Origin: PVC group bacterium
Lineage (GTDB): Bacteria; Omnitrophota; Gorgyraeia; B26-G9
Reading direction: 5' to 3'
Assembly: GCA_024231215.1 (NCBI GenBank)
Contig: JAAEQR010000003.1
Span: 22,660 to 86,659, forward strand
Length of the DNA stretch: 64,000 nucleotides
A program made the position numbers and the translations under genes. Positions 31,353 to 57,936 of the stretch are shown piece by piece. Position 1 is the first letter of the stretch; each line of letters begins with the position of its first letter. Below the pieces are notes generated by a model that saw only the letters and a list, made by a program, of their open reading frames with translations, was not told the DNA's origin and searched no databases.

Positions 31353-32825
31353 ATGAGGAAGGGACGGTATGTTGTTGTCGTTGCGGTAGCGGTTGCTTTG
31401 TTGTTGGCAGGGACTCAGTCAGCTTGGGCGCTGGACAGATTTTTAATTGGAGCACGCGGCGCAGGGATGGCTGGAGCTAATGTAGCGTGTGTAAATGATA
31501 CAACCGCGCAGTATTATAATCCGGCGGCGTTTGGTTTTATGGTTGAAGAAAGAAAAAAAGATACTGATCCGGGTAATTTTGCATGGGATACTAATATGGG
31601 GCTTGGATATCGTGTCCATGAAAATCTGGGAAAACTTTTGGATGATTTATCTAAAATAGATATTACGGAATTGGGTGCAAATGATATTCAGAACGAAACA
31701 GATTTGCAGAACTTGACTAAGGCGGCTGAGTTTATTAGCCGGCTTGATGATAAGGGAAACGCGATTAGTGTGGATGGCAATGCCGGCACAGGTGTTCGGA
31801 TAAATAATTTCGCGATCGGGGTGCGTGCTATGTATCAGGCTAGCGCAAGAGTTGCCACTGTTGATATAGCCAATCTGGGAATTGGAGTTAATATTGCTGG
31901 ACTAAATACTGATATTAATGCTGTTACATTAACGGGCGATGATGGACTGACATCTCTTTTCACCGGAGCGCAGGTAACACAGCTGACAACCGCAGGTTTA
32001 AATGCGGCTTCGATTCAACAGCTTGATTTCGCGGCAAGGCAAGCAGGGGTTAGTAGCGGGTCTACTGAATTACAACAGGCAGTTGACATGCTTGGTAGCG
32101 TTGCTACGGCAACAGCCAGTGCAACTGGTGGAGAAATTGAAAATAACACCACCAGCGCTGTATTAGAAGGATTTGGAGTGTATGAGATCCCGATTTCTTA
32201 CGGACGTGCCTTGAATGAGCATGTATCTATTGGTGGAAATCTGAAAATAATGAAGGGTAAAGTCTACGGGACCGAGATGATTGTTTTTAAAAATGATTCC
32301 GGCGATATTATGAAGGAAGCGGATGAAAATTATAAAGAGACTACGACTTTTGGTTTAGACCTGGGTGTAATGGCTAAATACGGAAAATTTAGCTACGGGC
32401 TTGTTGGCCGCAATTTAAATTCTCCAAAATTTGACGGGCCTACGGTTAATGCCAGAGTGTTCAATGATGTCACTATTGATCCTCAGGTTACTGCGGGTGT
32501 GGCATATCTTCCGTGGAACGGGTTGGTCTTAGAGTGTGATTATGATCTGACCAAGAGTGAAACAGGGTTGCCGGGATATGATACAAAGAACCTGTCTTTA
32601 GGTGTGGAATGGATGCTTATGCGGATTCTTTCTTTACGTGGTGGTATGTATGATAACATGGAAGAAAGCGATATCGGTTGGGTATATACAGCTGGTGTTG
32701 GTATAAATCTGCCATGGGTAAGCCTGGAAGTAGCCGGGGCGATGTCTTCTGATAAAAGTGATTATGACGGAGATAGTATTCCAGAAGAAAGTCGTGTTAC
32801 TGCACAGCTGAGCATTGGGTTTTAA
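31353..32825 (+). CDS. Outer-membrane beta-barrel protein, TraF_2/PorV/FadL-like
   Basis: Signal peptide ..TQSAWA, N-terminal GARGAGMAGANVACVNDTTAQYYNPAAFG, alternating beta-strand patterns, and a terminal ..AQLSIGF. Confidence 0.7.
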   Translation: MRKGRYVVVVAVAVALLLAGTQSAWALDRFLIGARGAGMAGANVACVNDTTAQYYNPAAFGFMVEERKKDTDPGNFAWDTNMGLGYRVHENLGKLLDDLSKIDITELGANDIQNETDLQNLTKAAEFISRLDDKGNAISVDGNAGTGVRINNFAIGVRAMYQASARVATVDIANLGIGVNIAGLNTDINAVTLTGDDGLTSLFTGAQVTQLTTAGLNAASIQQLDFAARQAGVSSGSTELQQAVDMLGSVATATASATGGEIENNTTSAVLEGFGVYEIPISYGRALNEHVSIGGNLKIMKGKVYGTEMIVFKNDSGDIMKEADENYKETTTFGLDLGVMAKYGKFSYGLVGRNLNSPKFDGPTVNARVFNDVTIDPQVTAGVAYLPWNGLVLECDYDLTKSETGLPGYDTKNLSLGVEWMLMRILSLRGGMYDNMEESDIGWVYTAGVGINLPWVSLEVAGAMSSDKSDYDGDSIPEESRVTAQLSIGF

Positions 32826-34457: not shown

Positions 34458-37400
34458 ATGATTTCAGTATTAAGTCGTAATTTTTTCTTTAGAACAACCG
34501 CAATTATTTTAATTCAAGCATTTTTATTAATAGACATATCGTGGGCCTGTGGTGGGAGGCTTAATGATATTGATGACAGTAAGGTTTTTGAAGATAACTA
34601 CCTTGCTCCTTCCTTAATTATTAATCACTCTGACTTTTCAAGTTATTTTTCTAGTCCAGAAGATATTACTGCGAATCAATTCAGTAGTTTAAGTTCTGCA
34701 GAAATCGAAACCTTAACATATAAACTTGGCCTAACTCTTACCAATGAAAAGCAAGCAGCAAGAGAGATTGAAGAGATTAAGAAAGAACAATTTAAAATAA
34801 TGGATCAGTTTAGTGAAGGGTTAGAGAACAAGGAGCAACGTGAAAAAGCTTTGAATCAGGTAGTAAGAGATACCAATAAAGCGATTGATACTTTAAGGGC
34901 TGATTTTGTTGTGCAGGAGAGGGCAAAAGCTGAGTTAAAAATTAAAGCAGAAGAGTTGAAAATAGAAGCAGAAATTGCAAAGCTAAAATTAGGCAAAGAG
35001 AGAAGAGAAAACTTTGCGAAAGAAGCTCAGCAGGCATATGATCAGGAAATCGCCAAGCTTATTAAAGAAATCAAAGATGCCGCGAAATCAAAAAAAAGAA
35101 AGGCAGAGGAAGAGTATAAGGAACGTGTTAGCAAAATTGAGGAATGTGTTAGCAAAATTAAGGAGGGACTGCTTGAAGGAATATACATATCTGATTCGCT
35201 GGCTCAGGATATTGAAAAAATCAAGCAGGATACAAATGCCAGGATCCAAAAGATAGCTGCGGATATGCGTACTGAGAAGGGCTTTTTAAGCGATACAGTC
35301 AGGGGTATTATTATTGGCGTGTTTAAAATCGCCTGGTATTGGCCAAAAGGTAAGATAGCTGTTTTAAAGATTGAATTGAGCACTCATGAAGGTTATGATC
35401 TTAGCAAGTCTCGTAGTAGATTTAAGGCAGAAGTTAAGGAAATTAATAAATCTGCCAAGGCAGAGATAGAAGCGGTTAGGGACGGAAAAGATAAAAGGAC
35501 ACATAAACTTAAAGAAGAGCTTGATCAGGCTGGTTTAAATATTGAAAAAGATAAAACGAGGCTGGAACAGCTGGAATCAGATAAGAAAAAACAGCCGGAA
35601 ACAATTAGACAAGAAGTAGAAAACGCAATAAAAGAAGCTCAGAAAGATGCAGCTTTAAAAATCCTTAGCGGTCTTCAAGGTGATGAATATGTAGAACTCA
35701 GGCTGAAGGCTTTAGAAACTGTTTTGCCGCTGGTTAAATTATACGAAGACCGCCAGTCAGAAGGCCAGATGGACATGAGAATTGAAAGTAGGGAGGAGTC
35801 CATTGCCGCTTTATTTTTACGCGCGTATCGGGAAGGGCTTAGCGCTATTTCGATTACCGATGCTAAGCAATTACCTTCTCCTGAGGCGGCTAAGGCACAG
35901 CAGATTGTGAACAGACATATCAAGCGTTCTCGAAAGAAAAATGAAGATAAAAGAAAACCGCTGAAATATATTCCGGGAATCGAATTAGTCGTGTCTCTGG
36001 ACGGAGAGAAAGTTCCGGTAATTATCTATCTGCCGGAAAATTCACGTAACTTGGCGAACGATAAGACTGTTCAGGATTTGCTGGCGCGTAGAAGACCGTT
36101 TATGTTACAGGAACTCGCCCATATTTTATACGTATATAACGGAAAGATTGCTTTAGCCGATGCTCATAAATCTCTAAAAGCAGCGCAGATATTTTTTGAA
36201 CGCATGGCGGAATTTGTAATTAAAGGCAGGATCCCGTTGCGGTCCGTATTAGGGGTCGTATATTATGAAGGAACAAAGCAAAAATCTGATGAGCCGGACA
36301 GTCCGGAGAAACAGAAGCTGATGGAGTATATCGCCCGGCTTTGCGTACACCATCCGGTTTATAAACAGAGTGAGCTTTTCTTTCTGCCGGGAACTAATTT
36401 CAGCGGTAGTGTAGATCTGGAAAAGGAAAATATGCTCGGCAGCGGAGCGGATCGTCATCCGCATGAAACGAGTTATCGAGATAGGATTTTAAAGGCAGTA
36501 AATTATAAATCGGGATTATGGGAGAAGATTGTTTATGAATATGAGGGGTTTTTAAAAAACGTTTATATTTGGGGTTTAATGATTACGGCAGGTGTAACGA
36601 TTGTTGGGACACATTCACTTATTTTGGCCGGACTTTTTGCGGTGATGTTCTATTATTTGATTGCGACATATCCTGGATCTAAAAAAAGTGCATTAAAACA
36701 ACAGGTGCAAGTAATTCCCCAGGCAGATATTGCGTCAGAGGAAATGATGAAATACAAAGATTGGAAATTTGATCCGGCTAAAATTCCTCAACCCAAACCA
36801 GAAAGCGAAAAGAGTGCTTCTAAATGGGGAAAAGTGATGGAAACCGCAGGAAATATTTTTGATAAACTGGATATATTAGAAAATCTTTTTTATAGAGCGA
36901 CAGCCGGGACTAAGTATTTTGCCGGCAGTTTGAGAGAGCATTTAAATAAAAATAAGATCACAAATAACTTTTTCAGAAACGATTTGAAGCCCTGGCAAAA
37001 ATGGACTTTCTTTATTTCCAGTTTGACAATAAGCGGAGTATTGGCCGGTTGGTTGGCCGGCAGTGCATGGCTCGGAATTAAAATAGGGGCATTAGTCTGG
37101 GGTATTGCAATAGCGTTAAAGATTTTTGTGTACATAACCGATTGGGATATGGTGCTTTTACTTTTTGGATTTGCTGGTAGTGGGATAGCCGGATGGTTCT
37201 TGGGAAAAGACTACCCGTGGCAAGGAGCTTTTATTGGTCTTACCGGGTGGACGGGTTTTTTAAATAGGAAAGGAATAATATCCTTTTTTAGAGACAGAAT
37301 AAGAAAAGAGATTGATTTTTATAAACGTTTTAGGATGCTTGGGCCCAAGGCTGTTTTTATCCGAAAGACTCTGAAATTACAGCAGGATATGGCTAAGGGA

Positions 37401-38723
37401 ATTGTATATGTGAATATGGTGGGAAAATCGTTTGGCCTGAGAAAAATAGAGGTTGTGAATGTTTTGGCTAAACATGGTTTTGAATATGTAAAGATACAAG
37501 ATGCCAGCACATTGGTATTTGCCAAAAAGGACGTGATGAGAAGGATCGGAGCGGAATTTTTGAAAACAGCTTTAGAAAAATCCGGCACTTCCTGGGAGAA
37601 GATGACCGAGACTTTAAATAAGATCACAGAACATTTTGAAAAAATGCTGGTCGAGGTAACGCTGAGCACAGGGAACGGCAGGACACGTAAAATGTTTATC
37701 CCGGATCCGAGAGAAATTGCCGATGATCAGGTTATGTATAAGCTTTACCGGATTATCGCCATGTACAAGGCACAGGGATTAGTTTTGGAAAATCCCCAAA
37801 CCCGTCTGGTGGTTGATGTAAAAGGAGCGGACGGACAAGTCAGACCAGTTACAGCAAACGAATTGGCCTTAGTTATGAATAAATATTTTGACATTGTAGT
37901 ACCCATGCCGGAGGAGGGAAGTACGCCGGTGAAATCCAGGATTAGTCAGGGGGAGGTAAGGATACTGGAAGCTACCGGACAGCTTAATGAACTTTGGGAA
38001 CAAGGGGTTAAATCTTTAGTTTCGATCAACCTTGGTTCGCAGATCAGAGTGATTGTTGCGGAATTGCTCAAAGATGAAAAAATCGGAACAATTCGGGTAA
38101 CCTCTTATCCGACAGAATTAGGGCGTGACCTGATTGATTTTAGCTCCGAGGCCGGGAAATCGGTAGAAAGTTTGATCAGTGATCAGGCAATATTGGAGGC
38201 GGCGGAAGAGATGGGCTTACTGGAAACGATTGCGCGAGAGTTTAATATGGATAAGGAGAGCGTAACCCCTGAGCATATCGGACTGATCGCTGCCGGGCGA
38301 AATCCTTTTAATCAGGAGCAAGAGTTATACCAGCCTGTAGAGGTTAAAAAGTCGACGATGCATATGGGCAGTAAATATTTTGGCGGAGACACCGGGTCTA
38401 AGCTTGAGCGATTAGAGGCTGTGGCCCAGGAGTTATGGAAAAAGATAGATCGCAAAATAGCGGATTTTATCATCAAGCTGGATGCGGATAGAGCTGCGGA
38501 ACCGGGAAAGACCTCTTATCATCTTAGCGGAGAAACAATGACTTTGGATATCGCTAAGTTAAGAACGGAAAATTTGCGCCGGTTTCTTGAAGAGAAAAAG
38601 GCTGAGCATATCGAATTTTCCTGCGGGGAAGACCCCCTATCGGGAAACGCAATAATCGACCATGATTTAGAGCGGTCTTCTGAGATTACCGAACCTGCTT
38701 TGTTGGTTGAAATGGCGATTTAG
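34458..38723 (+). CDS. Tagged-family member 2: 1421-aa protein with a K/E-rich coiled-coil region and an internal multi-TM block
   Basis: Leader IILIQAFLLIDISWA, YLAPSLIIN box, Lys/Glu-rich heptad-like sequence at about nt 34720-35700, 6-7 hydrophobic helices at about nt 36560-37265, and C-terminus LLVEMAI. Confidence 0.85.
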   Translation: MISVLSRNFFFRTTAIILIQAFLLIDISWACGGRLNDIDDSKVFEDNYLAPSLIINHSDFSSYFSSPEDITANQFSSLSSAEIETLTYKLGLTLTNEKQAAREIEEIKKEQFKIMDQFSEGLENKEQREKALNQVVRDTNKAIDTLRADFVVQERAKAELKIKAEELKIEAEIAKLKLGKERRENFAKEAQQAYDQEIAKLIKEIKDAAKSKKRKAEEEYKERVSKIEECVSKIKEGLLEGIYISDSLAQDIEKIKQDTNARIQKIAADMRTEKGFLSDTVRGIIIGVFKIAWYWPKGKIAVLKIELSTHEGYDLSKSRSRFKAEVKEINKSAKAEIEAVRDGKDKRTHKLKEELDQAGLNIEKDKTRLEQLESDKKKQPETIRQEVENAIKEAQKDAALKILSGLQGDEYVELRLKALETVLPLVKLYEDRQSEGQMDMRIESREESIAALFLRAYREGLSAISITDAKQLPSPEAAKAQQIVNRHIKRSRKKNEDKRKPLKYIPGIELVVSLDGEKVPVIIYLPENSRNLANDKTVQDLLARRRPFMLQELAHILYVYNGKIALADAHKSLKAAQIFFERMAEFVIKGRIPLRSVLGVVYYEGTKQKSDEPDSPEKQKLMEYIARLCVHHPVYKQSELFFLPGTNFSGSVDLEKENMLGSGADRHPHETSYRDRILKAVNYKSGLWEKIVYEYEGFLKNVYIWGLMITAGVTIVGTHSLILAGLFAVMFYYLIATYPGSKKSALKQQVQVIPQADIASEEMMKYKDWKFDPAKIPQPKPESEKSASKWGKVMETAGNIFDKLDILENLFYRATAGTKYFAGSLREHLNKNKITNNFFRNDLKPWQKWTFFISSLTISGVLAGWLAGSAWLGIKIGALVWGIAIALKIFVYITDWDMVLLLFGFAGSGIAGWFLGKDYPWQGAFIGLTGWTGFLNRKGIISFFRDRIRKEIDFYKRFRMLGPKAVFIRKTLKLQQDMAKGIVYVNMVGKSFGLRKIEVVNVLAKHGFEYVKIQDASTLVFAKKDVMRRIGAEFLKTALEKSGTSWEKMTETLNKITEHFEKMLVEVTLSTGNGRTRKMFIPDPREIADDQVMYKLYRIIAMYKAQGLVLENPQTRLVVDVKGADGQVRPVTANELALVMNKYFDIVVPMPEEGSTPVKSRISQGEVRILEATGQLNELWEQGVKSLVSINLGSQIRVIVAELLKDEKIGTIRVTSYPTELGRDLIDFSSEAGKSVESLISDQAILEAAEEMGLLETIAREFNMDKESVTPEHIGLIAAGRNPFNQEQELYQPVEVKKSTMHMGSKYFGGDTGSKLERLEAVAQELWKKIDRKIADFIIKLDADRAAEPGKTSYHLSGETMTLDIAKLRTENLRRFLEEKKAEHIEFSCGEDPLSGNAIIDHDLERSSEITEPALLVEMAI

Positions 38724-38861: not shown

Positions 38862-41800
38862 ATGGGTATCAATAAGAAATACCTATATCTAAGAATTATT
38901 GCATGTATTCTAATACAGGCGGTTTTGTTTGGTAACAGCGGCTTGATCGGAGTAGTGCGCGCAGAAAACTTCCTGTCGCCGGTTTTAGAAATAAATAATA
39001 AGCTGGTTAAGACTTCGTTTGAAACTCCTCAGGTAAAAAGTCGTCGTTTTGTTCATAATCTGGATGATTTATCAAAACTTTCCCGCCGCAAAAGAGATGA
39101 TCTCGAAATAAATGTTCTTAAAAGAATTAGAAATATTAATCTCAAAGGTTTTAATTTTTTATCAAGGGAGGAGCAGGAGAATTTCATTTTTGTTGATTTG
39201 GACTTTGCGGAGTATGTGTTAAAGACTATCTTTACCGATAAGATTAAAGAGGACATGTCTCAGAAGAACGTATCTTATGAAATCATAACAAGGATTATAG
39301 TAGACATGTTTATTCTTTTAAACAAGGTGTTAGAACAACAAGAAGGACAGGATAATACCTATATCGCATGCACTAATTATACTTTTTCTAAAGATAGAAA
39401 AGGACAGACATATGTACTCACGGTTAATTTTGAGAAAAAAGGAGTGGAAGCTAAAATATCAAAATTTATAGCCGAAGAAATTGATGCAGAAATGCCGAAT
39501 ATTGTCTCAGTGTCCGGGCCGATAGAAAAAATCACTGGAAATAAAAGTATAGATGTTAGTTTTTACGGGGTTTCAAAAAATAACAAAGTGCTTACCCCAT
39601 CGGAAATAACCCGAGCAGTGAAGAAGCTGCCGCCGAACGCAGAGAATATAGATATTTCGGAATTAAGAATTGCGCATAAAAGATTACTTAATTTGGCCAG
39701 AGATCGTTACGAAAAACAGGATATTTTAAAAGAAATAACCCCAGCCATAGAGAGGAAAATAAAAACAGGTATTGTTGCGGAAGGGACATCTTCTTTTACC
39801 CCGATTACTGAGAAGGCTTTTGTGGGAAAGATTATTTGCGCGGAAGTGGTAGAAAAAGAGAAAAAGCCGACATATCCTTTAGTTTCATATTATTCGGAAA
39901 CATTGAGGAAAGATCTGAGATTATTAGATAATGCTATAAATACGGCTATGTATAAGTATGAAGGTATAGATATTAATACGGTTCATCATTTTTTGCAGGA
40001 TGCCTTTGCGTTTGCAAGACATGATTCTCGGGAAACACGCAAGGCTCCGACAGCTCAATTTTTATCGCATCTTATGGATGAGCGGAAGGCAGTGCGGGTT
40101 AGAATTCGAAAGGAATTATTGGAGATTATTACATATACGCCGATGTTAAATAAAGACAATGAGCCAAGAGAGATTTCGGAAATCATGGAGGAAGAGCTAG
40201 CTGAGTTAGCGGAACTGCAAGATTACGAAGACAATATGTATATCTGGGGAGAACTGAACAGGCTTAATCAAGAGGATTTGCTATGGGATAACATCATGTC
40301 TCAAGCAAATGAAATTGTGGGTAATATATATCAATATATAGAAGGAGTGGACCCTGAACCTAAAAATGAAAAAGAGCAGATGGCTTTAGATGCGATTGAA
40401 AATGCGAGGAAGGCAGTCCCAACAGATACTCAAATTGGGTCTATGGTCGATACTGTATTACAAGATCTGCCGCGGCAGTTATTTGCCTGGTTAAGAAAAT
40501 ATGATTGTTCTTTACATGAGGCGTTTTTTCGGTCTATGCAACCTATTGTAGACCAGTTAGTTCAAGCTCAAGAACATACGTCGCAAATGAAAGGAGGGCT
40601 TTCTTTAAATCTCCATACCGAACTTTGTACTTTTGTGGATACTGTATTGTTGGAACTGGGAGAGTATGAATCGCGGCATGTAGTGGTACATAATGACTCG
40701 GAGAAGGAGCCATTTATATTATATGTGCCGGGAGACCTAGGAGGGCCGGAGGAATATTTGCGTTTTCGGCGTCTTTATCCGAATATGGTAGGGATTGTAG
40801 TTAAAGAAGGAGCTAAACATTATGCGGTAATGGCCGGAGATCACGGATTCCCGGTGATTAATAAAATTGATTTAATTGAAATGAGCGAAGGAAAATTGCC
40901 GTTAGAGCTGGTGTTAAAAAAGAAAACTAATGGAATTATGCGTATTAGCAGGGGAGGGAAAGCGTTTTTATATATAAACCCTTCATTGAGGGATACCCTT
41001 GAGGCGGAAACTATTATAAAAACAGCGCAGGCAATTAAAATATTGTGTGAAGCTAATATAGATTTAGAAGGAGAAGATGGGAAATTAAAGACGTATGATG
41101 GAGTAGAAGCGCCTGAGATAATGATGAATTTGGATATTGCCGAAGATGCGGAAGACTTGCCGAGCCGGGTAATACGGAAAATAGGTCTTTATCGTACAGA
41201 ATATGAGTATGAACGTCATGGAGAGTTAACAGAAGAAGCATGGTATAAAATTTTTAAGAAAATTGTTAAAGATTCAGAGGGCGATTTTATCGCTGTACGT
41301 TTACCGGATAGAAAAGTATCCGGAGAAGGTGGGGATATAAAAAATCCTAAAGCTTTTGGAAAAAGTAATCTTGAAGGACTTGATTTTTTGCTTGATGAAA
41401 GAGCTAAGGGCAGGCGAATCTCAACGATAATATTAAGGGCCCTTATGAGAGTATATGCAGAAGACGGAGTCGTAGGTGCTCTTTTTCCCATGGTTTCGCA
41501 AGAAAGAGCCGAAGGAATAATCGACTTTGTCGAAGAAATAAAAGAGAATTTAATCTTTGAACAAAAAAATAAAAATAAGCGGGAAGCTTTGGAAGAGGCG
41601 TTAGACAGCTTTTCCGTGGGAGCGATGTTTGAAACTCCTCAGGCTTTTGAATTTAAAAAAGAGCTTATGGAGATTTTTGATTTTGTAAGTTGGGGGAGTA
41701 ATGACTGGAAGATGGCTTCTTCCGGGAAGTCAAGAGGTGCTCAGGGAACGACCAAAGAATTGATTTCATTTACGCCTGAGGTTGTAAAAACCGCATTAGC

Positions 41801-42191
41801 GGCAGGTAAGATGAGCAGGAAGAAGGAAGTACCTTTTTCTATCTGTGGTAAGCTTGCGTCTACCCCTGAATTCATTCTATTTTCACTATATGCAAAGTCG
41901 TTGTCGCTTTTTGATATCCGACTAAGCGTTGGTAAAGATTCTATAGCGTACGTCAAAGAATTTATTCGCCATGTCGATACTAGACGCATTAAAGATATCT
42001 TTAATGATTATCGAAAAGGTTATGATCAGAATAAATTTGATGAGAAAATAGCAGATGAAATAGAAAACATAGTGCTTTCTATGGGAGAATTAGCCAAGCC
42101 TTTTCTACAGGGACAAGTTAAGATGTCGTTACAGAAGAAAAGGGGGCAGGCATCGAAGGCTCCTGTGTTAGTGCATGAGTATGCAATATAA
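38862..42191 (+). CDS. Tagged-family member 3: 1109-aa protein whose C-terminal half resembles PEP-utilising enzymes (swivel His-domain plus TIM barrel, PtsI/PPDK-like)
   Basis: GAKHYAVMAGDHGFPVI (compare GGxTSHAAIxARxxGIPAV), GLYRTEYEY (compare GLFRTEFL), LFPMVS, VGAMFETPQAF, FVSWGSNDW (compare SIGTNDL) and FSICGKLAS (compare CGEMAG). Leader ILIQAVLF, FLSPVLEIN box, C-terminus LVHEYAI. Confidence 0.8.
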   Translation: MGINKKYLYLRIIACILIQAVLFGNSGLIGVVRAENFLSPVLEINNKLVKTSFETPQVKSRRFVHNLDDLSKLSRRKRDDLEINVLKRIRNINLKGFNFLSREEQENFIFVDLDFAEYVLKTIFTDKIKEDMSQKNVSYEIITRIIVDMFILLNKVLEQQEGQDNTYIACTNYTFSKDRKGQTYVLTVNFEKKGVEAKISKFIAEEIDAEMPNIVSVSGPIEKITGNKSIDVSFYGVSKNNKVLTPSEITRAVKKLPPNAENIDISELRIAHKRLLNLARDRYEKQDILKEITPAIERKIKTGIVAEGTSSFTPITEKAFVGKIICAEVVEKEKKPTYPLVSYYSETLRKDLRLLDNAINTAMYKYEGIDINTVHHFLQDAFAFARHDSRETRKAPTAQFLSHLMDERKAVRVRIRKELLEIITYTPMLNKDNEPREISEIMEEELAELAELQDYEDNMYIWGELNRLNQEDLLWDNIMSQANEIVGNIYQYIEGVDPEPKNEKEQMALDAIENARKAVPTDTQIGSMVDTVLQDLPRQLFAWLRKYDCSLHEAFFRSMQPIVDQLVQAQEHTSQMKGGLSLNLHTELCTFVDTVLLELGEYESRHVVVHNDSEKEPFILYVPGDLGGPEEYLRFRRLYPNMVGIVVKEGAKHYAVMAGDHGFPVINKIDLIEMSEGKLPLELVLKKKTNGIMRISRGGKAFLYINPSLRDTLEAETIIKTAQAIKILCEANIDLEGEDGKLKTYDGVEAPEIMMNLDIAEDAEDLPSRVIRKIGLYRTEYEYERHGELTEEAWYKIFKKIVKDSEGDFIAVRLPDRKVSGEGGDIKNPKAFGKSNLEGLDFLLDERAKGRRISTIILRALMRVYAEDGVVGALFPMVSQERAEGIIDFVEEIKENLIFEQKNKNKREALEEALDSFSVGAMFETPQAFEFKKELMEIFDFVSWGSNDWKMASSGKSRGAQGTTKELISFTPEVVKTALAAGKMSRKKEVPFSICGKLASTPEFILFSLYAKSLSLFDIRLSVGKDSIAYVKEFIRHVDTRRIKDIFNDYRKGYDQNKFDEKIADEIENIVLSMGELAKPFLQGQVKMSLQKKRGQASKAPVLVHEYAI

Positions 42192-44296: not shown

Positions 44297-44379
44297 TCAA
44301 TTTGTACCCAGTCGTAAACCCGCCGCAAAATTTATTTCTAACCATCTGAAAATAAAAGACTTAAAAATCTCGCCAGACC

Positions 44380-44408
44380 TTGACAGGTTGTATTTCATAT
44401 GGTATACT
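44380..44408 (+). promoter_or_regulatory. Cluster promoter P4 (CCTTGACA-17 nt-TATACT)
   Basis: TTGACA at 44380-44385 and ATATGGTATACTTTACC, with the hexamer at 44403-44408. A GC hairpin gggccg/cggccc (44436-44456) lies in the leader. Confidence 0.7.
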
Positions 44409-44480
44409 TTACCGCTTTTATAATAATTAATGTAGGGGCCGCGCTCGGCTCGGCCCGAATAGTCTATAGAAGAGGTAAAT

Positions 44481-46349
44481 ATGCTATCCAAACGAATAAT
44501 AAAAGTTGTTGCAGTTGTTATTATCCAGATGTTTTTATTTATGGATTTTGCCTGGGCAGCGGATTGTCTAAGTCCTTCTTTGAATTTTAGCGGAACTCAA
44601 TTTTCCTCTCATTACAATATTATTTCTGAGGCAATTAAGATTTTTGAAGAATTAGAAGGAGCTCAGGAACAATTTGTTATCAAATCAGGTGATAATTATT
44701 TTTACGTTTATAATCCTAATAATGCTTCAAAAACATTATTAACAAATGCAGAAGTTATTATTAATAATGAAGACGTAGCAGTTGCTTTATTGGGTGATTT
44801 TAAATACCAGAAGACAGAAAAGAAGCTAGTAGAGCCGGTGAAAAATGTAAATATTATTACGGATTTATATTCAGTTCAGCAATGGCGTTCAATATTTGAA
44901 ATGATTATTCACGGGGTTGGTCCGAATAAACCAGGATATTCTCGGGACTATATCCCGCATGTCAAACGATGGTTTAGGCTTCTTTTTAAACAGATAACTG
45001 GGGTAGAGCCTCCAGCTGAAGCTGTTTATTTTTTCGAGGCAGTATATGCGGATGTTGTTACTAGCCGGGTTAATCCTATGGTAAAAAAATACAATAAAGA
45101 AGAAGAGCGTTATGGGGTGCGTGAAATAGAATTAACTCAAAAGGCGATAGGTAATTTTGCGGCAACGCCCTACGCATACATGGATGCAGGTGTTAGAGAA
45201 GAGATGTATAAAAAATTAGATGCGGTTTTAGCAGAGATAGTAGAGATAGCTCTAGCTCAAGGAGCGACTGGCGATTGGCCGACAGCATTAAATGCAATAA
45301 TGCACAGCCAGGGAACGGTCACCGGAACTGAATGGATCCAGGACCGATTAGAAAAAGGAATGTGGCCGGATGTATTGCAGACAGATAAAATAATATTAAT
45401 TGGTGGGGTGTTATGGCTCAAATCAATTCTTAGAAGCAGACCTTTAAGTGATCCTTTAAGAGTTCAAAAATTTGGAGGAATGATTGTAAATATTAAAGAC
45501 CCGCAAGATGCAATTGGAAGATTTTTAAGGCTATTGAGCCCTGAATTTGCGGATGCGATATTTGCTGATGGGTATCTTAATGTGGGAAGTTTTTTAAACC
45601 CATTATCACATACAATTGCTTCTCATACTAAGTATTGGAATAGTCGTAGAATCGCTAAAATCAAGGCAATGATGCTTGTATTTAGCGCATTAAGGCAGAA
45701 TCCCGCGTGGTTAACCAAATACGGACGCAAGTCTTTAGATATTAATGCAGCAGAAACTGAATTCAGAAGAGATCTTCTAAAATTACTTAGAAGTGACTTA
45801 TCCTCCTTGCCCCAGCATGATCCGGAACTTATTGGGCCGGGGTATAAATTTGTGTCTAATGATGAGAATGAGGCTACGGGAGGTATCTTTGTTTTAAATG
45901 AAGCGGCTGAAAAAATTGGATTTTATGCGGACAATAAAACAGTTGCTGCAAATAATGATATCATTGAGCCGATCAAAGCAAAAGTTAAATTTACAAAAAA
46001 TCTTACAGCTAAAGTAGAAGAGTTAAATAAAATCACTCCGGATAGAGCAAATAACCAGGGGTATATGATGATTAATTCTTTGAATCAGGAAGCGGCGAAT
46101 CAAATTAGAGACAAAATTAAAGAAATCAGTTTATTTGTAGAACAGTTTCAGGGTGCAGATACACGGGAGCTTGCTGTACGGATTAAGGAAGTGCAGGATT
46201 TAGCTAGACAGAATATGGACATTTCTAAATTAGATGAAATTAAAGTAAAAATGCAGAATTTGCTTAGTACTACTATAAAGTCAATTGAAGTTTGTAAGCC
46301 TGCTTCAGGGCAGAGTTCAATTATTGCTGCAATCAGTATATCAATATAA
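44481..46349 (+). CDS. Tagged-family member 5: 622-aa protein of unknown function
   Basis: Leader VVIIQMFLFMDFAWA, CLSPSLNFS box, C-terminus IAAISISI. I recognised no catalytic motif. Confidence 0.8.
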   Translation: MLSKRIIKVVAVVIIQMFLFMDFAWAADCLSPSLNFSGTQFSSHYNIISEAIKIFEELEGAQEQFVIKSGDNYFYVYNPNNASKTLLTNAEVIINNEDVAVALLGDFKYQKTEKKLVEPVKNVNIITDLYSVQQWRSIFEMIIHGVGPNKPGYSRDYIPHVKRWFRLLFKQITGVEPPAEAVYFFEAVYADVVTSRVNPMVKKYNKEEERYGVREIELTQKAIGNFAATPYAYMDAGVREEMYKKLDAVLAEIVEIALAQGATGDWPTALNAIMHSQGTVTGTEWIQDRLEKGMWPDVLQTDKIILIGGVLWLKSILRSRPLSDPLRVQKFGGMIVNIKDPQDAIGRFLRLLSPEFADAIFADGYLNVGSFLNPLSHTIASHTKYWNSRRIAKIKAMMLVFSALRQNPAWLTKYGRKSLDINAAETEFRRDLLKLLRSDLSSLPQHDPELIGPGYKFVSNDENEATGGIFVLNEAAEKIGFYADNKTVAANNDIIEPIKAKVKFTKNLTAKVEELNKITPDRANNQGYMMINSLNQEAANQIRDKIKEISLFVEQFQGADTRELAVRIKEVQDLARQNMDISKLDEIKVKMQNLLSTTIKSIEVCKPASGQSSIIAAISISI

Positions 46350-46363
46350 AGGAAGGTAAAAAT

Positions 46364-49183
46364 ATGTTATCTAAGAGATTCGTAAAAATTATTTCAATTG
46401 TAATCATTCAGGCATTTTTGGTTTTGGACTTTGCCTGGGCCATGGGGCCTGATGCCAGATTTTTTGATGCCGGAGCACAGGAATATCTTGCTCCGACATT
46501 AACTATTAACAGCGCGCCGATTCAGGCAACTTTGCAAAATATGATGGCGCGTGAGAAATCACTTCAGGATGTTATTGATTTTGGCAAAGAAGAAAAAACA
46601 GAATTCTTTGCCGGGTTATCTAAAGAAGAAAAAATAAAACAGCTTGAACAATGGATGGCTGCGTCTTTTGAAGGCGGCGGACCCAAAGGCGCTTATGAAG
46701 CAGGGATTGGACAACTGTTTATGGAGTCATGGATGCATTTGAAAAACCAGGGCAAGGAAGATGTTACCGGGTTTGATGTTATCGGGGGTAACTCCGCAGG
46801 TGCAATTAATGCTTTGTTTTTTAGTTTAGCAATAATGTATGATCCGACTTTTGTTAAATATAATGAAATTACCTGGGTAAAACATTTAAATTTAAAGAAT
46901 TTATTAGAACCGGGCCAAAATTATAATCCTAAGAACGCAGTTTTTTCCAGCCAAATAATAGATCGCGCAATAAAAGCCATAGAGCAAAAGTTGGAAGAGT
47001 GTAAGAATAACGACAAGACTCTTTCTTATGCTCCGGAAGAGATAAGAGTTGTTTTTTCAGTAACCAATCTTAGTGGAACTCCTTATTGGGATGAAGTGAA
47101 GAATCTTCTGGATGGTAAAAAAGGTATTAGATATGACCACCAGGGGAAAATCCATTTTACAATTAAAAAGAAAGACCGCTACAGTCCTGAGACTATGGAA
47201 ATGCTTACATTGATGATGAAAGTTGCGGTAGCTTCAGCATCAATTCCAATTGTTTTTGAAGCGCGAAAAATAGCTCAGTCAGTTAGAGCTTATCCTGGCA
47301 GCATTTTGGCAAACATGGCTGTGAAAGCCGGGAAATGGCTTACCGAAAAAATCACATCAATTTTTGTCGATGGAATGCTTGTAGACAACAAGGCGATAAA
47401 AACAGTAGCAAAGCTAGCTAGGAAGAAGGATATTGAAGAGGGAATGCTGAACAGCAATTTGCGCAATAGATTGCAAGTGGCTATTTCACCGAATGTAATA
47501 GATGATACCGAAGGAGAAAGATTTGATAAACAGGATATCCCTTCTGTTGCTATGAAGAGCCTTAGTGCGGTTATGGCGCAAGTTCTTTATCAGAATGAAA
47601 AGATTGATGAGATAAATAAGAAAAACACGCTGATTACGCATTTCATACAGGATATACAGAAACAGGCTGAAAAAGTAAAGCGTTATAAATGGAGTAAGAA
47701 GCGACTAAAGCAGGAGATTGATGAGTTATTATTCGGATCAAGTTACAGTCTTATTAAACGCAAAAGTGAAAATAGAGCCAAAAGACACATTCTAAAGGAA
47801 ACAGGAAAAGAAGTGGAATATGAAGCGACCAAGGATGAAGTAGCCTGGTATATAAAAAGAAATAAAGAACGTGTAATCAGGCAGCGTTTGCTGGCCAACG
47901 GAATTATTACCGAAGCACAGCTTAACAGTCAGGATGAACGGGATAAATTGTTTATTGATTACTTGGCACTTTTTACGTTTGTCGAGGAATGCGGTCGTGA
48001 TTTAAGAGGCAGGGAAGAAGTATACGTACATCAGATTGCGCCAACTAAGCATCCTTTGGCATCTGATCTCTTGCTCGGGTTTTTGAGTGAGGATGTCAGG
48101 CAGGCTGATTTTAATCAGGGATATGAAGATGCACGATTGGCATTGGAGGCGCTTTTAGGTGTGGATCTTTCTGGTTTGCGCCGGCAGGAATCGGTTCAGC
48201 AGACGGAAGGTTATCAGTTTGCTTATAGCAATGTTTCTTTGACAGAAAGAAAAGAAATAGTAAATATGCTTATTGCCAGAGCAAAACTTATTGTTAAAAC
48301 TATCTTAAGCAAAAAACATTCGTCCTTGGTGGGTAAAATATTCGCTCAGCCGGGGATTGTGGGAAGAAATATTCTGCTTAGTGGTGCTTTAATATTTGTT
48401 AAAAAAATGCTGGCAAAACAATTTCATATTCCTCAGGATGAAAAAAATGCTAAAGCAAGAAGAGTCGAGTCTTTAAAGCTAAATATGCGTAATAATATTT
48501 TATATAAAGAGAATGAACTTTATAATTTAAAGGAAACAAAAGCAAGGCTGGAGCAAATAGCTAATTCTAAGAAGCCGGTTGCAGTTATTGTAGGTAGTGA
48601 TTTAGAAACTTCATTTGAGGCAATGTCTGTGATTAGTAGGTATAGAAAAGATATTACTATTCTTAAAGCACCACATGGAGAGACCCCTGGACAAGCTTTG
48701 CGAACAAGTTATACAAAAGGAAAAGAGACTATTGATTTACATAAATCTACCCAATATAACAGAGATGTTATTTTAAAAACTTTTATTTTAAATTCAGGAA
48801 TTTTAATTAGTACTAAAAAGATGCTGGATAAATATTCTCGAATTGGAGGTAATTACAAAATTACAGAATTGGGGGAAAAAGCAGAAGCCGAGTGGGCAAC
48901 AATTATTAATAATAAAGAACATATAATTATATTGGGAGAGACCCCGGAACAATTAAAACCGATATTAAAGGATAAGGATGTATTAGAAATAGAGACAGCA
49001 AAGCATAGGAAGGCTTTGAATAGAAAAATCCCCTTTGTCGGCAGGAATGTTTGGGAGAAATATTTTGGCAAAGATAAGCAAGCTAAAACACGTAATTTAC
49101 TGGACCTTCGTTATGTACCTAGTTTTGGTGGATATAAACAACCATTGATGATGCATAATAATCTGGTGAATATAGCAATTTAA
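46364..49183 (+). CDS. Tagged-family member 6: 939-aa patatin-like phospholipase with a long C-terminal extension
   Basis: FEGGGPKGAYEAG (oxyanion GGGxxG), GGNSAGA (GxSxG) and VDGMLVDN (catalytic Asp region). Leader VIIQAFLVLDFAWA, YLAPTLTIN box, C-terminus NLVNIAI. Confidence 0.85.
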   Translation: MLSKRFVKIISIVIIQAFLVLDFAWAMGPDARFFDAGAQEYLAPTLTINSAPIQATLQNMMAREKSLQDVIDFGKEEKTEFFAGLSKEEKIKQLEQWMAASFEGGGPKGAYEAGIGQLFMESWMHLKNQGKEDVTGFDVIGGNSAGAINALFFSLAIMYDPTFVKYNEITWVKHLNLKNLLEPGQNYNPKNAVFSSQIIDRAIKAIEQKLEECKNNDKTLSYAPEEIRVVFSVTNLSGTPYWDEVKNLLDGKKGIRYDHQGKIHFTIKKKDRYSPETMEMLTLMMKVAVASASIPIVFEARKIAQSVRAYPGSILANMAVKAGKWLTEKITSIFVDGMLVDNKAIKTVAKLARKKDIEEGMLNSNLRNRLQVAISPNVIDDTEGERFDKQDIPSVAMKSLSAVMAQVLYQNEKIDEINKKNTLITHFIQDIQKQAEKVKRYKWSKKRLKQEIDELLFGSSYSLIKRKSENRAKRHILKETGKEVEYEATKDEVAWYIKRNKERVIRQRLLANGIITEAQLNSQDERDKLFIDYLALFTFVEECGRDLRGREEVYVHQIAPTKHPLASDLLLGFLSEDVRQADFNQGYEDARLALEALLGVDLSGLRRQESVQQTEGYQFAYSNVSLTERKEIVNMLIARAKLIVKTILSKKHSSLVGKIFAQPGIVGRNILLSGALIFVKKMLAKQFHIPQDEKNAKARRVESLKLNMRNNILYKENELYNLKETKARLEQIANSKKPVAVIVGSDLETSFEAMSVISRYRKDITILKAPHGETPGQALRTSYTKGKETIDLHKSTQYNRDVILKTFILNSGILISTKKMLDKYSRIGGNYKITELGEKAEAEWATIINNKEHIIILGETPEQLKPILKDKDVLEIETAKHRKALNRKIPFVGRNVWEKYFGKDKQAKTRNLLDLRYVPSFGGYKQPLMMHNNLVNIAI

Positions 49184-49217: not shown

Positions 49218-49255
49218 GCCCCCCTTCCGGGAATATCCGGGAGGGGGTTTTTGTT
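49218..49255 (+). terminator. Strong intrinsic terminator
   Basis: GC-rich stem ccccccttccgg / ccgggaggggg (about 11 bp) followed by tttttgtttt. Confidence 0.9.
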
Positions 49256-49380: not shown

Positions 49381-49409
49381 TTGAAAAAAGCCAAATCATA
49401 TGGTATACT
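49381..49409 (+). promoter_or_regulatory. Cluster promoter P5 (TTGAAA-17 nt-TATACT)
   Basis: TTGAAA at 49381-49386 and ATATGGTATACTTTACC, with the hexamer at 49404-49409. Confidence 0.65.
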
Positions 49410-55048: not shown

Positions 55049-55070
55049 TGGGCCGGTTGAGACCGGCCCA
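55049..55070. other. GC-rich hairpin (tgggccggt / accggccca) without a downstream U-tract
   Basis: 9-bp stem with a tgag loop, flanked by T5 upstream and A3 downstream. It lies between the giant gene and the next family member. Confidence 0.4.
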
Positions 55071-55088
55071 AACTGATATATAATTAAT

Positions 55089-56639
55089 ATGAAAATAATT
55101 ACAAGTATAATCATACAGATATTTTTATTTACTACCTTGTGCTTTGGCGCGGGAGCGAATAGCTATCTTTCCCCTGAGATATCCATGGCTAGTGAAGGAG
55201 TAAAGGACAGGATATCTCAGGTATCCGAGCAAGATAATACTGCGTCTATTTTTCCTACCTATGATGTGATTAAAGAACTCAAGAAAGAAAATTATATTTC
55301 AGGTAAAATTGGCCAGCATGATTTTGCCGGAACAGTAAGACGACGGAAAGGTTTTTTATTTATCCATAATGTATATAAGCCTCAGAGCAAGAAAGATATC
55401 CGATGCTGGGGCGGTGTTTTATTTAAGGTTCCGTATGAAATAATACCTTCTGAAGACGAGGATAAAGGTGTGTTTTTGAAAATGCGTATAAAAGATGTAT
55501 CTAAAAACGGAAAGTTTTCTCTTACCTTGCAATGGCCGGAATTAAAGAATGATAGTTATGTGCGGCTTGTCTATGATACGGATAAAACAGGGGAGATCAC
55601 TATAAACTTATCTAAACTGGTTAAGGACAGAGGATTGCCGGCTGGGGATCAGTTTTATGTACAGGTATTGCCGGTTGGTCATAATGCTAAAGTAGAAATA
55701 GATGAATTTGTTTTAGAAAATATTCCGGTGCGGCAGGAAGAAAATGCTGTGTATAACCGGCATATATACCCTATATATAAAGAAGGGGAATATCCAATTA
55801 ACTTAACTTCGTATCAGGCGGAACAAATTCGCGTGTTTTTGTCTGCAATTTACTCGATTTCAGAAGAGAGCAAAAGGAAAGATGTTTCCAAAGTAGAAAT
55901 AGGTGGTGAGTTGTTTGATTTGCTTAATCAGATAATGGAAGAGCAGGAGAGTTTATGTCTTTTAATGGAATTGGGATATGAAGAGCCGCTGTTGAAAATA
56001 TTAACAGTATTAAAAAAGAAGTTTTTGCGTATGTCTAACATAGCAGTAAAGGTTGAAAAGCTAAAAATAGAAATGCAGAGTAATTCTCGAATGTTAAGAG
56101 TAAGAAGACTGGAAAAAGAGTGGTCTTATATTAATAATCAGTTCGAAGAAAAAAATGCGCAGTACACTGAGACTTTACGCCAGCATCGGGTATTTGGTTC
56201 ACCTCATCCGGGAAGCTATGATGAGATTATGTCCTTGTTTGAAATAAAGAATCATTTGTTTGGAGAATTGAATCGGACAAAAGATGAGTTATTTCGTAAG
56301 GTGGTTGAATACTATAATCATTGTCGTAACTTTTGTAAATTTAAAAGGACCTTAAAGCAGAAGATGGAAGAGATAAATACCATATTAAACAGCAAAGAGG
56401 AGGCTAATATATATTCGAATCCGGAATTATTAGCAAAAGAATTTAAAAAATATTCGTCTTTGATGGGCTCTCCTTCGAAGGCGAGCCGCCTGACTGCCGA
56501 AGATAAAAAATCTGTTATAAAGATGGTTATGTCTTATATTTCTTCGCAATCCGATAGACGCGAGGAAAATATCACTTCGGTGAAATCAATTAAAGAGATT
56601 TCTCGTCCTGCTTTATCTTTCGTGGAATCAGCAATATAG
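55089..56639 (+). CDS. Tagged-family member 8: 516-aa protein of unknown function
   Basis: Leader SIIIQIFLFTTLCFGAGA, YLSPEISMA box, C-terminus SFVESAI. There is no obvious Shine-Dalgarno sequence. Confidence 0.75.
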   Translation: MKIITSIIIQIFLFTTLCFGAGANSYLSPEISMASEGVKDRISQVSEQDNTASIFPTYDVIKELKKENYISGKIGQHDFAGTVRRRKGFLFIHNVYKPQSKKDIRCWGGVLFKVPYEIIPSEDEDKGVFLKMRIKDVSKNGKFSLTLQWPELKNDSYVRLVYDTDKTGEITINLSKLVKDRGLPAGDQFYVQVLPVGHNAKVEIDEFVLENIPVRQEENAVYNRHIYPIYKEGEYPINLTSYQAEQIRVFLSAIYSISEESKRKDVSKVEIGGELFDLLNQIMEEQESLCLLMELGYEEPLLKILTVLKKKFLRMSNIAVKVEKLKIEMQSNSRMLRVRRLEKEWSYINNQFEEKNAQYTETLRQHRVFGSPHPGSYDEIMSLFEIKNHLFGELNRTKDELFRKVVEYYNHCRNFCKFKRTLKQKMEEINTILNSKEEANIYSNPELLAKEFKKYSSLMGSPSKASRLTAEDKKSVIKMVMSYISSQSDRREENITSVKSIKEISRPALSFVESAI

Positions 56640-56667: not shown

Positions 56668-57936
56668 ATGAGTAGTAGATTTGGAGTAATATTTAAAATC
56701 ATTGTAATAGTACTTGTGCAGGCATTTTTGACGTTAGATCTTGCTTGGGCTGCGCAGGGGAATCTGCGTTCGTTTCAAGCGGATGATACTATTTCTCCTT
56801 ATATCCAGGTCGAAAATATTTCTTTGCAGGCCGGATTTTCTGTTTTATTTACTAAGGTTGCTGTGAAAGATATTGCTCAGATTGAAACTATTGAGAGTAT
56901 AGAGCAAAACACTACTAACTCATCCATCCTATCTCAAATCAGAAATTGGATGGAAAGATTTTTTCTAAAAATCACATTTTCTTTAGGACAGATATTGTTA
57001 GGGTGGACTGGACTTGTTTGGGCGCAGGAGCATATAGAAGAATATAACGGCCCTTATTTTGATAACGTATGGTCGTATTGGTGGTATCGGACATGTAATT
57101 TTTTTACAAATCCAGTTGTTTTTAAGACTGTATTGGTTATCTCAGGTGTAGCAATGGTTTTTTTAGTCGCGAGTTTTGTTGTAGCTAACCTGATGACAAG
57201 TAAAAAAGATAGAAGCAATCTGGGAATGGTGATATTGATTGGTTTGATTGGTTATTTGGTTCTAAGCAGTGATATAGGCAATAAAGTACAAGACTTTTTC
57301 TTTCCCGATGTTATGCCTGATATGAAGACTTCGACACAAAAGAGTATTATGGAGCACAAATTAGGACTCCCTGGAGTAGGCATACAGACAAATGCGGTGC
57401 ATTCGGAAGTAATACAAGAATTCACCTCAAAAGGAAAAACAAGGAAAAATGTAATTATAAACGGAAAGATAGTAGGAGATAATATTCCTCAGAAGAGTTT
57501 TACACTTGATCAGAATGAGATTGTCTTGGCTGTATTGTTCATGCTTGCAGGGATTTTTTTAATTGATCATGCAATAAACAAAAATAAAAGAGGTCAGAAA
57601 ACATTAATAGATATATCTTTTGCTTTCTGGGGCCCGATAATAGAGGAGATAATTGAGATATTGAAAGCGTCATCTCAATCTGCAGGCCAGCTGGTAACGA
57701 TTAATGAATCAGACATAGCTGATTTACCATCAGAGACTGAGACTGTGTTGGATCAGTCAGGGGTGTTTTTCTCGGATAAGAATTCTGCCCAGGGAGAGCT
57801 TCAGCTTTATATGGAACAATTCGGGGCGCTTCTTTATCCTACAAACTGGGATGATTTTCGAAAAGCAGAACAGGTGCATCGTAACCGGCTGAATAATTGT
57901 AGTACATCATATGTTTTGCTGGAACAGGCTGTTTAG
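56668..57936 (+). CDS. Tagged-family member 9: 422-aa polytopic membrane protein
   Basis: Leader VIVLVQAFLTLDLAWA, TISPYIQVE box, about 4 internal hydrophobic helices, C-terminus VLLEQAV. Confidence 0.8.
   Translation: MSSRFGVIFKIIVIVLVQAFLTLDLAWAAQGNLRSFQADDTISPYIQVENISLQAGFSVLFTKVAVKDIAQIETIESIEQNTTNSSILSQIRNWMERFFLKITFSLGQILLGWTGLVWAQEHIEEYNGPYFDNVWSYWWYRTCNFFTNPVVFKTVLVISGVAMVFLVASFVVANLMTSKKDRSNLGMVILIGLIGYLVLSSDIGNKVQDFFFPDVMPDMKTSTQKSIMEHKLGLPGVGIQTNAVHSEVIQEFTSKGKTRKNVIINGKIVGDNIPQKSFTLDQNEIVLAVLFMLAGIFLIDHAINKNKRGQKTLIDISFAFWGPIIEEIIEILKASSQSAGQLVTINESDIADLPSETETVLDQSGVFFSDKNSAQGELQLYMEQFGALLYPTNWDDFRKAEQVHRNRLNNCSTSYVLLEQAV

Follow-up and report, generated by a model that had tools for sequence, protein, structure and literature searches.

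What kinds of proteins are gathered in a gene cluster whose members appear to share nothing except a short export tag, and are the most featureless among them truly without relatives? The question is raised by two genes in a 64,000-nucleotide (nt) stretch of contig JAAEQR010000003.1 (the whole stretch is termed the window), from a metagenome-assembled genome (MAG) labelled "PVC group bacterium". A first-pass annotation had described their products, of 622 amino acids (aa; gene 44481-46349) and 516 aa (gene 55089-56639), as orphans without a catalytic signature that carry clean versions of an N-terminal leader, a short box and a C-terminal tail, and had ranked them, should the cluster be an effector arsenal, as its members most likely to have new activities. 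Both open reading frames (ORFs) are present as claimed on the plus strand, and a hidden Markov model (HMM) of the tag, a regular expression for the box and a count of C-termini agree that both proteins possess all three parts. The two are cargo of one tagged family but are probably not equivalent, in that the 622-aa protein appears to be a lipid hydrolase and the 516-aa protein an orphan.

The 622-aa protein adds a new, tagged member from bacteria to the lipase-like DDHD/DUF676 hydrolases, and it can be placed among the alpha/beta-hydrolases of this group with high confidence. On its own, the protein has no significant match in Pfam, NCBIfam, PHROGs or PADLOC (for Pfam DDHD, PF02862, none at E <=0.1, and none for DUF676, PF05057), and a word-indexed search of 5.8 billion protein clusters returned nothing, the protein itself included; it is missing from that collection, which does contain the 516-aa product of the same contig (GY853_00320). 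A full HMMER search of 1.84 billion cluster representatives, by comparison, recovered 26 homologues at E <=1e-3, four of them at E <=1e-10, and all 26 cover residues ~134-457. When the 27 family members are searched individually, 12 match DUF676 (putative serine esterase) and 11 match DDHD (best E 9e-8); counted at E <0.01, 12 of the 27 reach DUF676, with a best E of 4.8e-8, and 11 reach DDHD, only some of them attaining the DDHD gathering score (e.g., P0006, at 28.6 versus 28.3 bits). An AlphaFold2 model built on the family alignment is confident for residues 131-443, with a predicted local distance difference test (pLDDT) score of mostly 85-97, and its core fold is similar to those of solved alpha/beta-hydrolases, the closest structural match being the DDHD domain of Nir2 (PDB 9jyx). 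Because a PDB sequence search with the family profile gave only weak lipase matches around the nucleophile elbow (E >=0.04), the DDHD relationship rests on structure and on the matches made by other members of the family. For this protein, the earlier description as a motif-less orphan with a likely new activity is thus replaced by that of a DDHD/DUF676-like serine hydrolase with a conserved Ser-Asp-His set and 26 homologues.

Invariant in the 27-sequence alignment are Y233, H275, S276, G278, G308, N337, D343, D363, H382 and Y385, and the motif IHG(I/V)G is conserved. The order in the model is canonical (nucleophile, acid, histidine), with H382 lying after the last strand. The D340-P-Q-D343 stretch is where the homologues match the Pfam DDHD model, and D340, D343, D363 and H382 are conserved without a one-to-one mapping onto the residues of eukaryotic DDHD domains. 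In the mechanism proposed, an acyl ester would be attacked by Ser276, which the strand-elbow-helix presents; the triad would be made up by His382 and either Asp340 or Asp343, with His144-Gly145 as the oxyanion hole. A membrane lipid is the likely substrate, and the enzyme would act as a lipase or in the manner of phospholipase A1. That the 622-aa protein is an active lipid esterase is regarded as reasonably likely. Several points weigh against it, including the negative Pfam and NCBIfam searches noted above, a methionine (Met274) at elbow position -2 in place of the usual small residue, the homologues having G, A, S or T there, and departures from near-invariant family positions (e.g., GSP to GGV, and the Trp of GxWxN). 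Moreover, the solved domain nearest to it in structure, that of Nir2, is described as lipase-like yet inactive (PMC12582312), which raises the prospect that the 622-aa protein is likewise a catalytically dead domain serving in lipid binding or scaffolding. Met274, together with the loss of several near-invariant family residues throughout the tagged branch (the 622-aa protein and its best homologue, P0002), could be read in the same way. Such a role is nevertheless thought unlikely, as Ser276, Gly278, Asp340/343, His382 and the HG motif are all kept in both tagged proteins (the elbow of P0002 reads GHSLG), whereas in Nir2 the serine has been replaced by glycine.

For the hydrolase reading, P0002 is also instructive with respect to the tag. 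This 445-aa protein (E 2.6e-39, 33% identity), from an unrelated metagenome contig, possesses a leader (IIAIILINSFVLINLCWA), a box (CLSPSVMLN) and a C-terminal LVSQSI, and reaches 51 bits with a tag HMM trained on the window proteins alone. As P0002 is both homologous and tagged, the joining of a lipase-like cargo to the tag is a conserved combination and not an accident of the window genome. The region of the 622-aa protein beyond ~aa 470 is absent from P0002, and the P0002 contig, at only 2.6 kb, offers little context (an IS200-type transposase upstream and an HflX-like gene downstream). The remaining homologues are 211-337 aa long, and the full-length ones begin directly at ..IHGIG.., and so have no signal peptide; one homologue cluster bears no label beyond "hypothetical protein [Candidatus Omnitrophota bacterium]". 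Confident homology to housekeeping periplasmic proteins, which would have spoken against an effector role, was looked for and not found; the untagged homologues are rare and uncharacterised. PADLOC returned nothing for four untagged homologues, which gives no link to known defence systems.

The tag that unites the two proteins goes well beyond chance in the window, where 11 ORFs carry its three parts, ten of them consecutive at 33021-60730 and one at 15252. The box expression, [LIVMT][SA]P.[LIV].[LIFMV][NSAEQ], when run on six-frame ORFs of >=100 aa, gives exactly 11 matches in the six frames, all of them 30-65 residues into the ORF. With the tag HMM, which covers the N-terminal region, the 11 tagged ORFs score 49-74 bits and all other six-frame ORFs of the window <=9.4 bits; leave-one-out scores of the 11 range from 10.7 to 54 bits, with 31.9 bits for the 622-aa and 22.2 bits for the 516-aa protein. 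A C-terminal [AGS][IV] is found in 11/11 tagged ORFs versus 0/24 other plus-strand ORFs of >=150 aa, such that the association of box and tail is complete in the window. Outside the tag, the cores of the 11 proteins have no mutual similarity, which supports, at the level of sequence, the inclusion of the 622-aa and 516-aa proteins in a family sharing only its tag. Those neighbours that look enzyme-like by Pfam (PAD, PEP-utilising, DHH, patatin and TPR matches) would fit an arsenal of exported proteins.

In both proteins, the tag HMM recognises the leader pattern K/R..I-I-Q-A-F-L..(D)-x-A-W-A at the N-terminus, and a box of the form L-[SA]-P-x-[ILV]-x-[ILMFV] lies within ~65 residues of the start (LSPSLNF at aa 30 of the 622-aa protein, LSPEISM at aa 27 of the 516-aa protein). 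The terminal [AS]-[IV], which follows L-[IV]-x-Q in the general tail pattern, is likewise found in both. The versions are less clean than had been claimed: the tail of the 622-aa protein (..AAISISI) is the most divergent of all, its ..ISISI agreeing with the consensus only at the final two residues and in the I at -4, and the leader of the 516-aa protein is among the weaker ones (22 bits in the leave-one-out test) and is without the D..AWA end, although its ..FVESAI tail is a good match. By inspection, the leaders consist of basic residues, then a hydrophobic core, then A-x-A, and the putative parts of a Sec signal peptide would be MLSKRIIK / VVAVVIIQMFLFM / DFAWA in the 622-aa and MK / IITSIIIQIFLFTTLCF / GAGA in the 516-aa protein. 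The leader thus looks like a Sec-type signal peptide of unusually fixed sequence, with cleavage of the 622-aa leader predicted after A26. No Pfam or NCBIfam model matches the tag, whether whole proteins or isolated tag peptides are searched; the LPXTG, PEP-CTERM, GlyGly-CTERM and type IX secretion system (T9SS) C-terminal domain (CTD) signals give no curated-model match, and a hydropathy scan detects no hydrophobic C-terminal segment. A search of the Omnitrophota secretion and effector literature found no paper describing the tag, and this three-part export signal is apparently undescribed so far.

The 516-aa protein has kept its orphan status. Its sole match in the 5.8 billion clusters is itself, and Pfam, NCBIfam, PHROGs, PADLOC and PDB sequence searches gave nothing significant, nor did phmmer detect relatives among the loci fetched from other assemblies, so that for this protein the absence of a catalytic signature stands. 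Structure prediction and Foldseek searches, which the first-pass annotation had suggested, led to the Nir2-like DDHD fold for the 622-aa protein; for the 516-aa protein, they yielded a poor single-sequence AlphaFold2 model (pLDDT 47.7) and weak jelly-roll or carbohydrate-binding-module (CBM)-type matches to its sandwich (E 3e-4 to 1e-2). As a hint only, the model suggests a beta-sandwich followed by long helices, and a non-catalytic binding or adaptor cargo is one possibility, put forward with some doubt. Given its weak leader, and with neither a homologue nor a family promoter to itself, the ORF might instead be taken for a decaying or rapidly evolving gene that has no function. Yet its frame is uninterrupted over 516 codons, with box and tail retained at opposite ends, which argues for a real gene, and a truly broken member of the family looks different: in a locus from another assembly (L004 9986-10397), a tagged gene is frameshifted, with leader and box in different frames, and adjoins a transposase-like fragment, an example of decay in the family. 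Loss of function is therefore considered very improbable for the 516-aa gene.

The similarity of the 44481 leader DNA to that of the downstream gene 46364 had been taken as evidence that a tag-encoding module was duplicated. The similarity is real, at 56/78 nt and 17/26 residues, but the codon is shared at only 7 of the 17 identical residues, two of these seven being Met and Trp. Back-translation of both peptides with the codon usage of the window gives 51.1 +/- 2.8 identical nt (P ~0.05), and other leader pairs have 63-75% nt identity. Identity close to that expected from the peptides, with codons that mostly differ, indicates that the similarity is kept at the protein level, and synonymous sites of the two leaders look randomised; recent duplication or gene conversion of leader DNA was accordingly rejected. 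The presence of the tag in other Omnitrophota assemblies further implies an old origin and maintenance by selection acting on the peptide. Together with the recognisable hydrolase domain, which already refutes the first half of the idea for the 622-aa protein, these data render it improbable that the two proteins are motif-less orphans with new activities whose tag was spread by DNA duplication, even with the 516-aa protein lacking any homologue or family match.

Where, then, does the tag occur outside of the window? A DNA scan of one genome per species located four tagged loci in three MAGs, all titled Candidatus Omnitrophota, and a metagenome scan added six further loci, one of which duplicates a genome locus. 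These scans used a 4-sequence tag alignment, a 12-sequence alignment being too degenerate; as a profile against the protein collection, the latter retrieved just two fragments, the window's other tagged proteins not being among them. Omnitrophota is part of the PVC group, in agreement with the label of the window's source, and the window's tagged family probably comes from an Omnitrophota bacterium. Leader and box are now seen on 33 proteins from the window and the other loci, with mostly unrelated cargo. The box consensus of 32 tagged proteins is x-L(31/32)-[SA]-P(29/32)-x-[ILV]-x-[ILMFV]-[NSDQ]-xxx-[LFIV]-xxx-[FLYI], the tail consensus is L-[IV]-[EGD]-Q-[AS]-I, and [AS/G]-[IV] closes 31/31 scorable proteins (those whose ORF end lies within the sequence).

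The cargo found elsewhere includes a PPDK_N domain with a PEP-utilizers mobile domain, a GT1 glycosyltransferase, HEAT repeats and many proteins without a family match; a PEP-utilizers_C cargo is a full-length relative of the window's 38862, and a glycogen-synthase-like fragment ends in LLEQAI. An untagged relative of the PPDK-like cargo occurs at L009 4493-7210. In metagenome contig L002, a tagged trypsin-like serine protease (1-1764; box at the contig edge, end LLEQSI) is directly followed by another tagged gene (1775-2035, P0029). A tagged 849-aa protein at L004 7385-9934, for which Pfam reports only HEAT repeats at E <=1e-3, contains a GTMNPLHYGH stretch similar to the HxGH motif of nucleotidyltransferases. 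A crude hydropathy scan finds exactly two internal hydrophobic segments in many of the tagged proteins elsewhere, an arrangement in which box and tail would both lie on the outer face of the membrane. The closely spaced hydrophobic pair in some of them is reminiscent of the bilobed hydrophobic domain found in inclusion-membrane proteins of chlamydiae.

Under the reading preferred here, tagged proteins would be exported by Sec across the inner membrane, with the leader cleaved, and a second, family-specific sorting step would then read box and tail. The likeliest destination would be the cell surface, or a host or prey cell whose membrane the 622-aa enzyme would attack, and such action accords with the predatory or parasitic lifestyle proposed for Omnitrophota (PMC10066038). 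Two findings count against this picture. First, no sorting or secretion machinery was found beside the tagged clusters, in the window or at the other loci, and no sortase-like partner was identified; the only conserved non-tagged neighbours are major facilitator superfamily (MFS), glycoside hydrolase family 2 (GH2)-like and PilZ genes, which are shared by closely related contigs and are not read as sorting machinery. Second, several tagged cargoes elsewhere depend on ATP, phosphoenolpyruvate (PEP) or sugar nucleotides, which is odd for periplasmic or extracellular proteins. The lack of dedicated secretion genes could equally mean that tagged proteins stay in the cell's own envelope, periplasmic or anchored by their conserved hydrophobic leader, and there serve in lipid turnover or envelope remodelling; those with internal membrane segments would remain in the inner membrane. 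This is a serious alternative, though the less likely one, since the leader ends in a good A-x-A site, two phospholipases in the producer's own envelope would be hazardous, and ATP-, PEP- or sugar-nucleotide-dependent cargo would idle in the periplasm. Such cargo indirectly favours, but does not prove, delivery into another cell as opposed to a purely periplasmic role.

The tagged genes also share a promoter element, TTG(A/C)(C/A)A-N17-TATGGTATACTTTA (in short form TTGACA-N17-TATGGTATACTTTA), an exact copy of whose TATGGTATACTTTA lies at 44398-44411, upstream of the 622-aa gene. With <=2 mismatches allowed in the 14-mer, the window contains 8 matches versus 0.92 expected, and all 7 on the plus strand lie just upstream of tagged ORFs (15252, 33021, 34458, 38862, 44481, 49449 and 58097); no other plus-strand genes of the window are preceded by the element. 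The 44378..44412 copy belongs to repeat family D2/D3, whose copies lie upstream of 34458, 38862, 44481, 49449 and 58097. The four tagged genes without an element (42203, 46364, 55089 and 56668) each begin 11-69 nt after another tagged gene, and hence are probably co-transcribed with it. For 55089, none lies directly upstream and the nearest TATGGTATACTTTA is that at 49399, upstream of 49449, with which it may be co-transcribed; 56668 and 55089 are probably in one transcript. As the same element precedes tagged genes in L001, L003-L009 and L011-L013, including the P0002 contig, the tagged genes look like a conserved regulon. In addition, a GC-rich hairpin pattern has 3 matches in the window versus 0.16 expected, and precisely the 622-aa and 516-aa genes have such a hairpin 20-25 nt ahead of the start codon. 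Rfam and tRNA scans returned nothing for the window.

The 622-aa gene is separated by a 14-nt gap, which holds a ribosome-binding site, from the tagged patatin-like phospholipase gene 46364. No plus-strand promoter-like or terminator-like site lies between the two, and they are probably co-transcribed, forming what would be a two-gene unit for two lipolytic enzymes. The 622-aa enzyme and the patatin-like phospholipase may thus cooperate as a lipid-degrading module. Coordinates of all features are collected in the table.

Table. Features of the two tagged genes, their surroundings and related loci (window coordinates, unless a locus from another assembly, L, is named)
Feature	Position	Strand	Evidence or remark
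Promoter-like element CCTTGACA-N17-TATGGTATACTTTAC	44378..44412	+	11/12 sigma-70 match with extended -10 at 44380-44408
GC-rich hairpin GGCCG..CGGCC, presumed 5' untranslated region of 622-aa gene	44437..44455	+	fold z-score -1.9
622-aa tagged DDHD-like serine hydrolase gene	44481..46349	+	ORF; AGAAGAGG ribosome-binding site upstream; 26 homologues
Leader, aa 1-26 (MLSKRIIKVVAVVIIQMFLFMDFAWA)	44481..44558	+	tag HMM; basic start, hydrophobic core, A-W-A end
Box, aa 29-45 (CLSPSLNFSGTQFSSHY)	44565..44615	+	box expression; logo of 32 tagged proteins
Alpha/beta-hydrolase (DDHD/DUF676-like) domain, aa 134-443	44880..45809	+	
H144-G145, HG oxyanion-hole motif after first core strand	44910..44915	+	IHG(I/V)G conserved; model strand 138-144
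Nucleophile elbow M274-H-S276-Q-G278	45300..45314	+	H275, S276, G278 invariant; strand 268-275 directly into helix 277-291
D340-P-Q-D343, candidate catalytic acid after strand 334-339	45498..45509	+	D343 invariant, D340 >=90% conserved
H382, candidate catalytic histidine (motif SHTKYW)	45624..45626	+	H382 and Y385 invariant
C-terminal extension, aa 444-612, predicted helical	45810..46316	+	pLDDT mostly <60
Tail SIIAAISISI	46317..46346	+	divergent form of L-[IV]-x-Q-[AS]-I
Tagged patatin-like phospholipase gene	46364..49183	+	Pfam Patatin, E 2e-15
Intrinsic-terminator-like hairpin, end of 44481-46364 unit	49220..49247	+	12-bp stem, 9 GC pairs, then TTTTTGTTTT T run
GC-rich hairpin GGCCGGTTGAGACCGGCC between 49449 and 55089	55051..55068	+	fold z-score -3.97; no T run
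Generic sigma-70-like site TTGAGA-16-TATAAT	55057..55084	+	overlaps hairpin; no TATGGTATACTTTA match, so not the family element
516-aa tagged ORFan gene	55089..56639	+	ORF
Leader, aa 1-22 (MKIITSIIIQIFLFTTLCFGAG)	55089..55154	+	tag HMM
Box, aa 26-42 (YLSPEISMASEGVKDRI)	55164..55214	+	box expression; logo
Putative beta-sandwich, aa 67-212	55287..55724	+	single-sequence AlphaFold2, regional pLDDT 55-80; hint only
Long predicted helices, aa 241-505	55809..56603	+	low-confidence model; heptad-rich stretch ~aa 298-331
Tail PALSFVESAI	56607..56636	+	
Next tagged gene, 422 aa, internal membrane segments	56668..57936	+	28 nt downstream of 516-aa gene; no family promoter element between
TATGGTATACTTTA matches	15194, 32977, 34391, 38791, 44398, 49399, 58032	+	
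Tagged cargo normally cytoplasmic	L008 15158-19360; L007 14958-19916; L012 1290-4649 (-); L012 7443-9947; L004 1-2268; window 38862-42191		
Tagged proteins with internal hydrophobic segments	L005 9995-13069; L008 6539-8419, 9902-12175, 12439-15045; L009 9977-12289; L013 204-935, 2002-4233; window 56668-57936, 34458-38723		

Several other genes near the tagged clusters deserve mention. In the window, a sigma-54 activator (29851-30852) and a TraF_2/PorP-SprF-like outer-membrane beta-barrel (31353-32825) lie directly upstream of the ten-gene tagged cluster; no counterpart of the barrel was found beside the tagged clusters of the other loci. Small PilZ-domain (c-di-GMP-binding) proteins are encoded just upstream of tagged clusters at L004 2256-2642 and L008 6038-6418, with a further PilZ protein at L004 19123-20090. 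An untagged protein with a patatin-POTRA-Omp85 architecture, like that of the type Vd autotransporter PlpD, is encoded at 25925-28153 of the window and represents a second, differently exported patatin phospholipase. Finally, the cluster is followed at 60980-64000 by an ORF that, judged by eye, resembles pyruvate:ferredoxin oxidoreductase and runs past the window end, suggesting an anaerobic organism.

Omnitrophota are uncultured, widespread and suspected of being predators or parasites. The rule of leader, box and tail, combined with the promoter element, selects proteins that are probably exported and so allows the candidate interaction factors of any Omnitrophota genome to be listed directly; among them, the 622-aa protein and the adjacent patatin enzyme constitute a putative membrane-attacking pair that can be tested. 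Uncharacterised bacterial relatives are also recognised for the lipase-like DDHD fold, whose known examples are mainly intracellular phospholipases of eukaryotes, a finding that gains value through its tie to an apparently undescribed tag-plus-promoter system conserved in Omnitrophota. It is tempting, if speculative, to go further and to regard the leader, the LSP box, the terminal ..Q-A-I and the promoter as an undescribed, Omnitrophota-specific regulon and sorting pathway that exports dozens of unrelated enzymes, among them lipases, PEP/ATP-dependent enzymes and glycosyltransferases, along with membrane proteins, either into host or prey cells or to the cell surface, with the 622-aa protein as a secreted bacterial DDHD counterpart and the 516-aa protein as an effector of new fold.

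Compared with known systems, the two proteins and their tag stand somewhat apart. Members of the DDHD/iPLA1 family (DDHD1, DDHD2, SEC23IP and Nir2, 9jyx) are eukaryotic and cytosolic, whereas the 622-aa protein is bacterial, tagged and equipped with a putative signal peptide; sequence identity is ~12%, and no Pfam threshold is reached. DDHD2 and p125 carry Gly-X-Ser-X-Gly (PMC9031518), and the DDHD domain of Nir2 has lost the serine that the 622-aa protein keeps. Secreted phospholipase and lipase effectors of bacteria, including Legionella PlaB (6zth) and RavL (7x2p), the Tle lipases of type VI secretion and patatin-type enzymes, have no sequence-level relationship to the 622-aa protein. The sandwiches of CBM11, CBM16 and CBM30 bear a weak Foldseek similarity to aa 67-212 of the 516-aa protein, in a low-confidence model and without sequence similarity, and have no counterpart of its C-terminal 270 residues of helices. 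The export signal itself, a fixed Sec leader with box and tail, is not that of type III, type IV or type VI secretion. Its closest parallels are YSIRK-G/S with LPXTG, PEP-CTERM/exosortase and the T9SS CTD, in each of which an N-terminal signal-peptide variant and a C-terminal signal are likewise placed on many unrelated cargoes within one lineage. From these, the tag described here differs in a tail of ~6 residues at the free C-terminus, in place of a membrane helix, basic cluster or folded domain, and in the possession of an extra N-terminal box.

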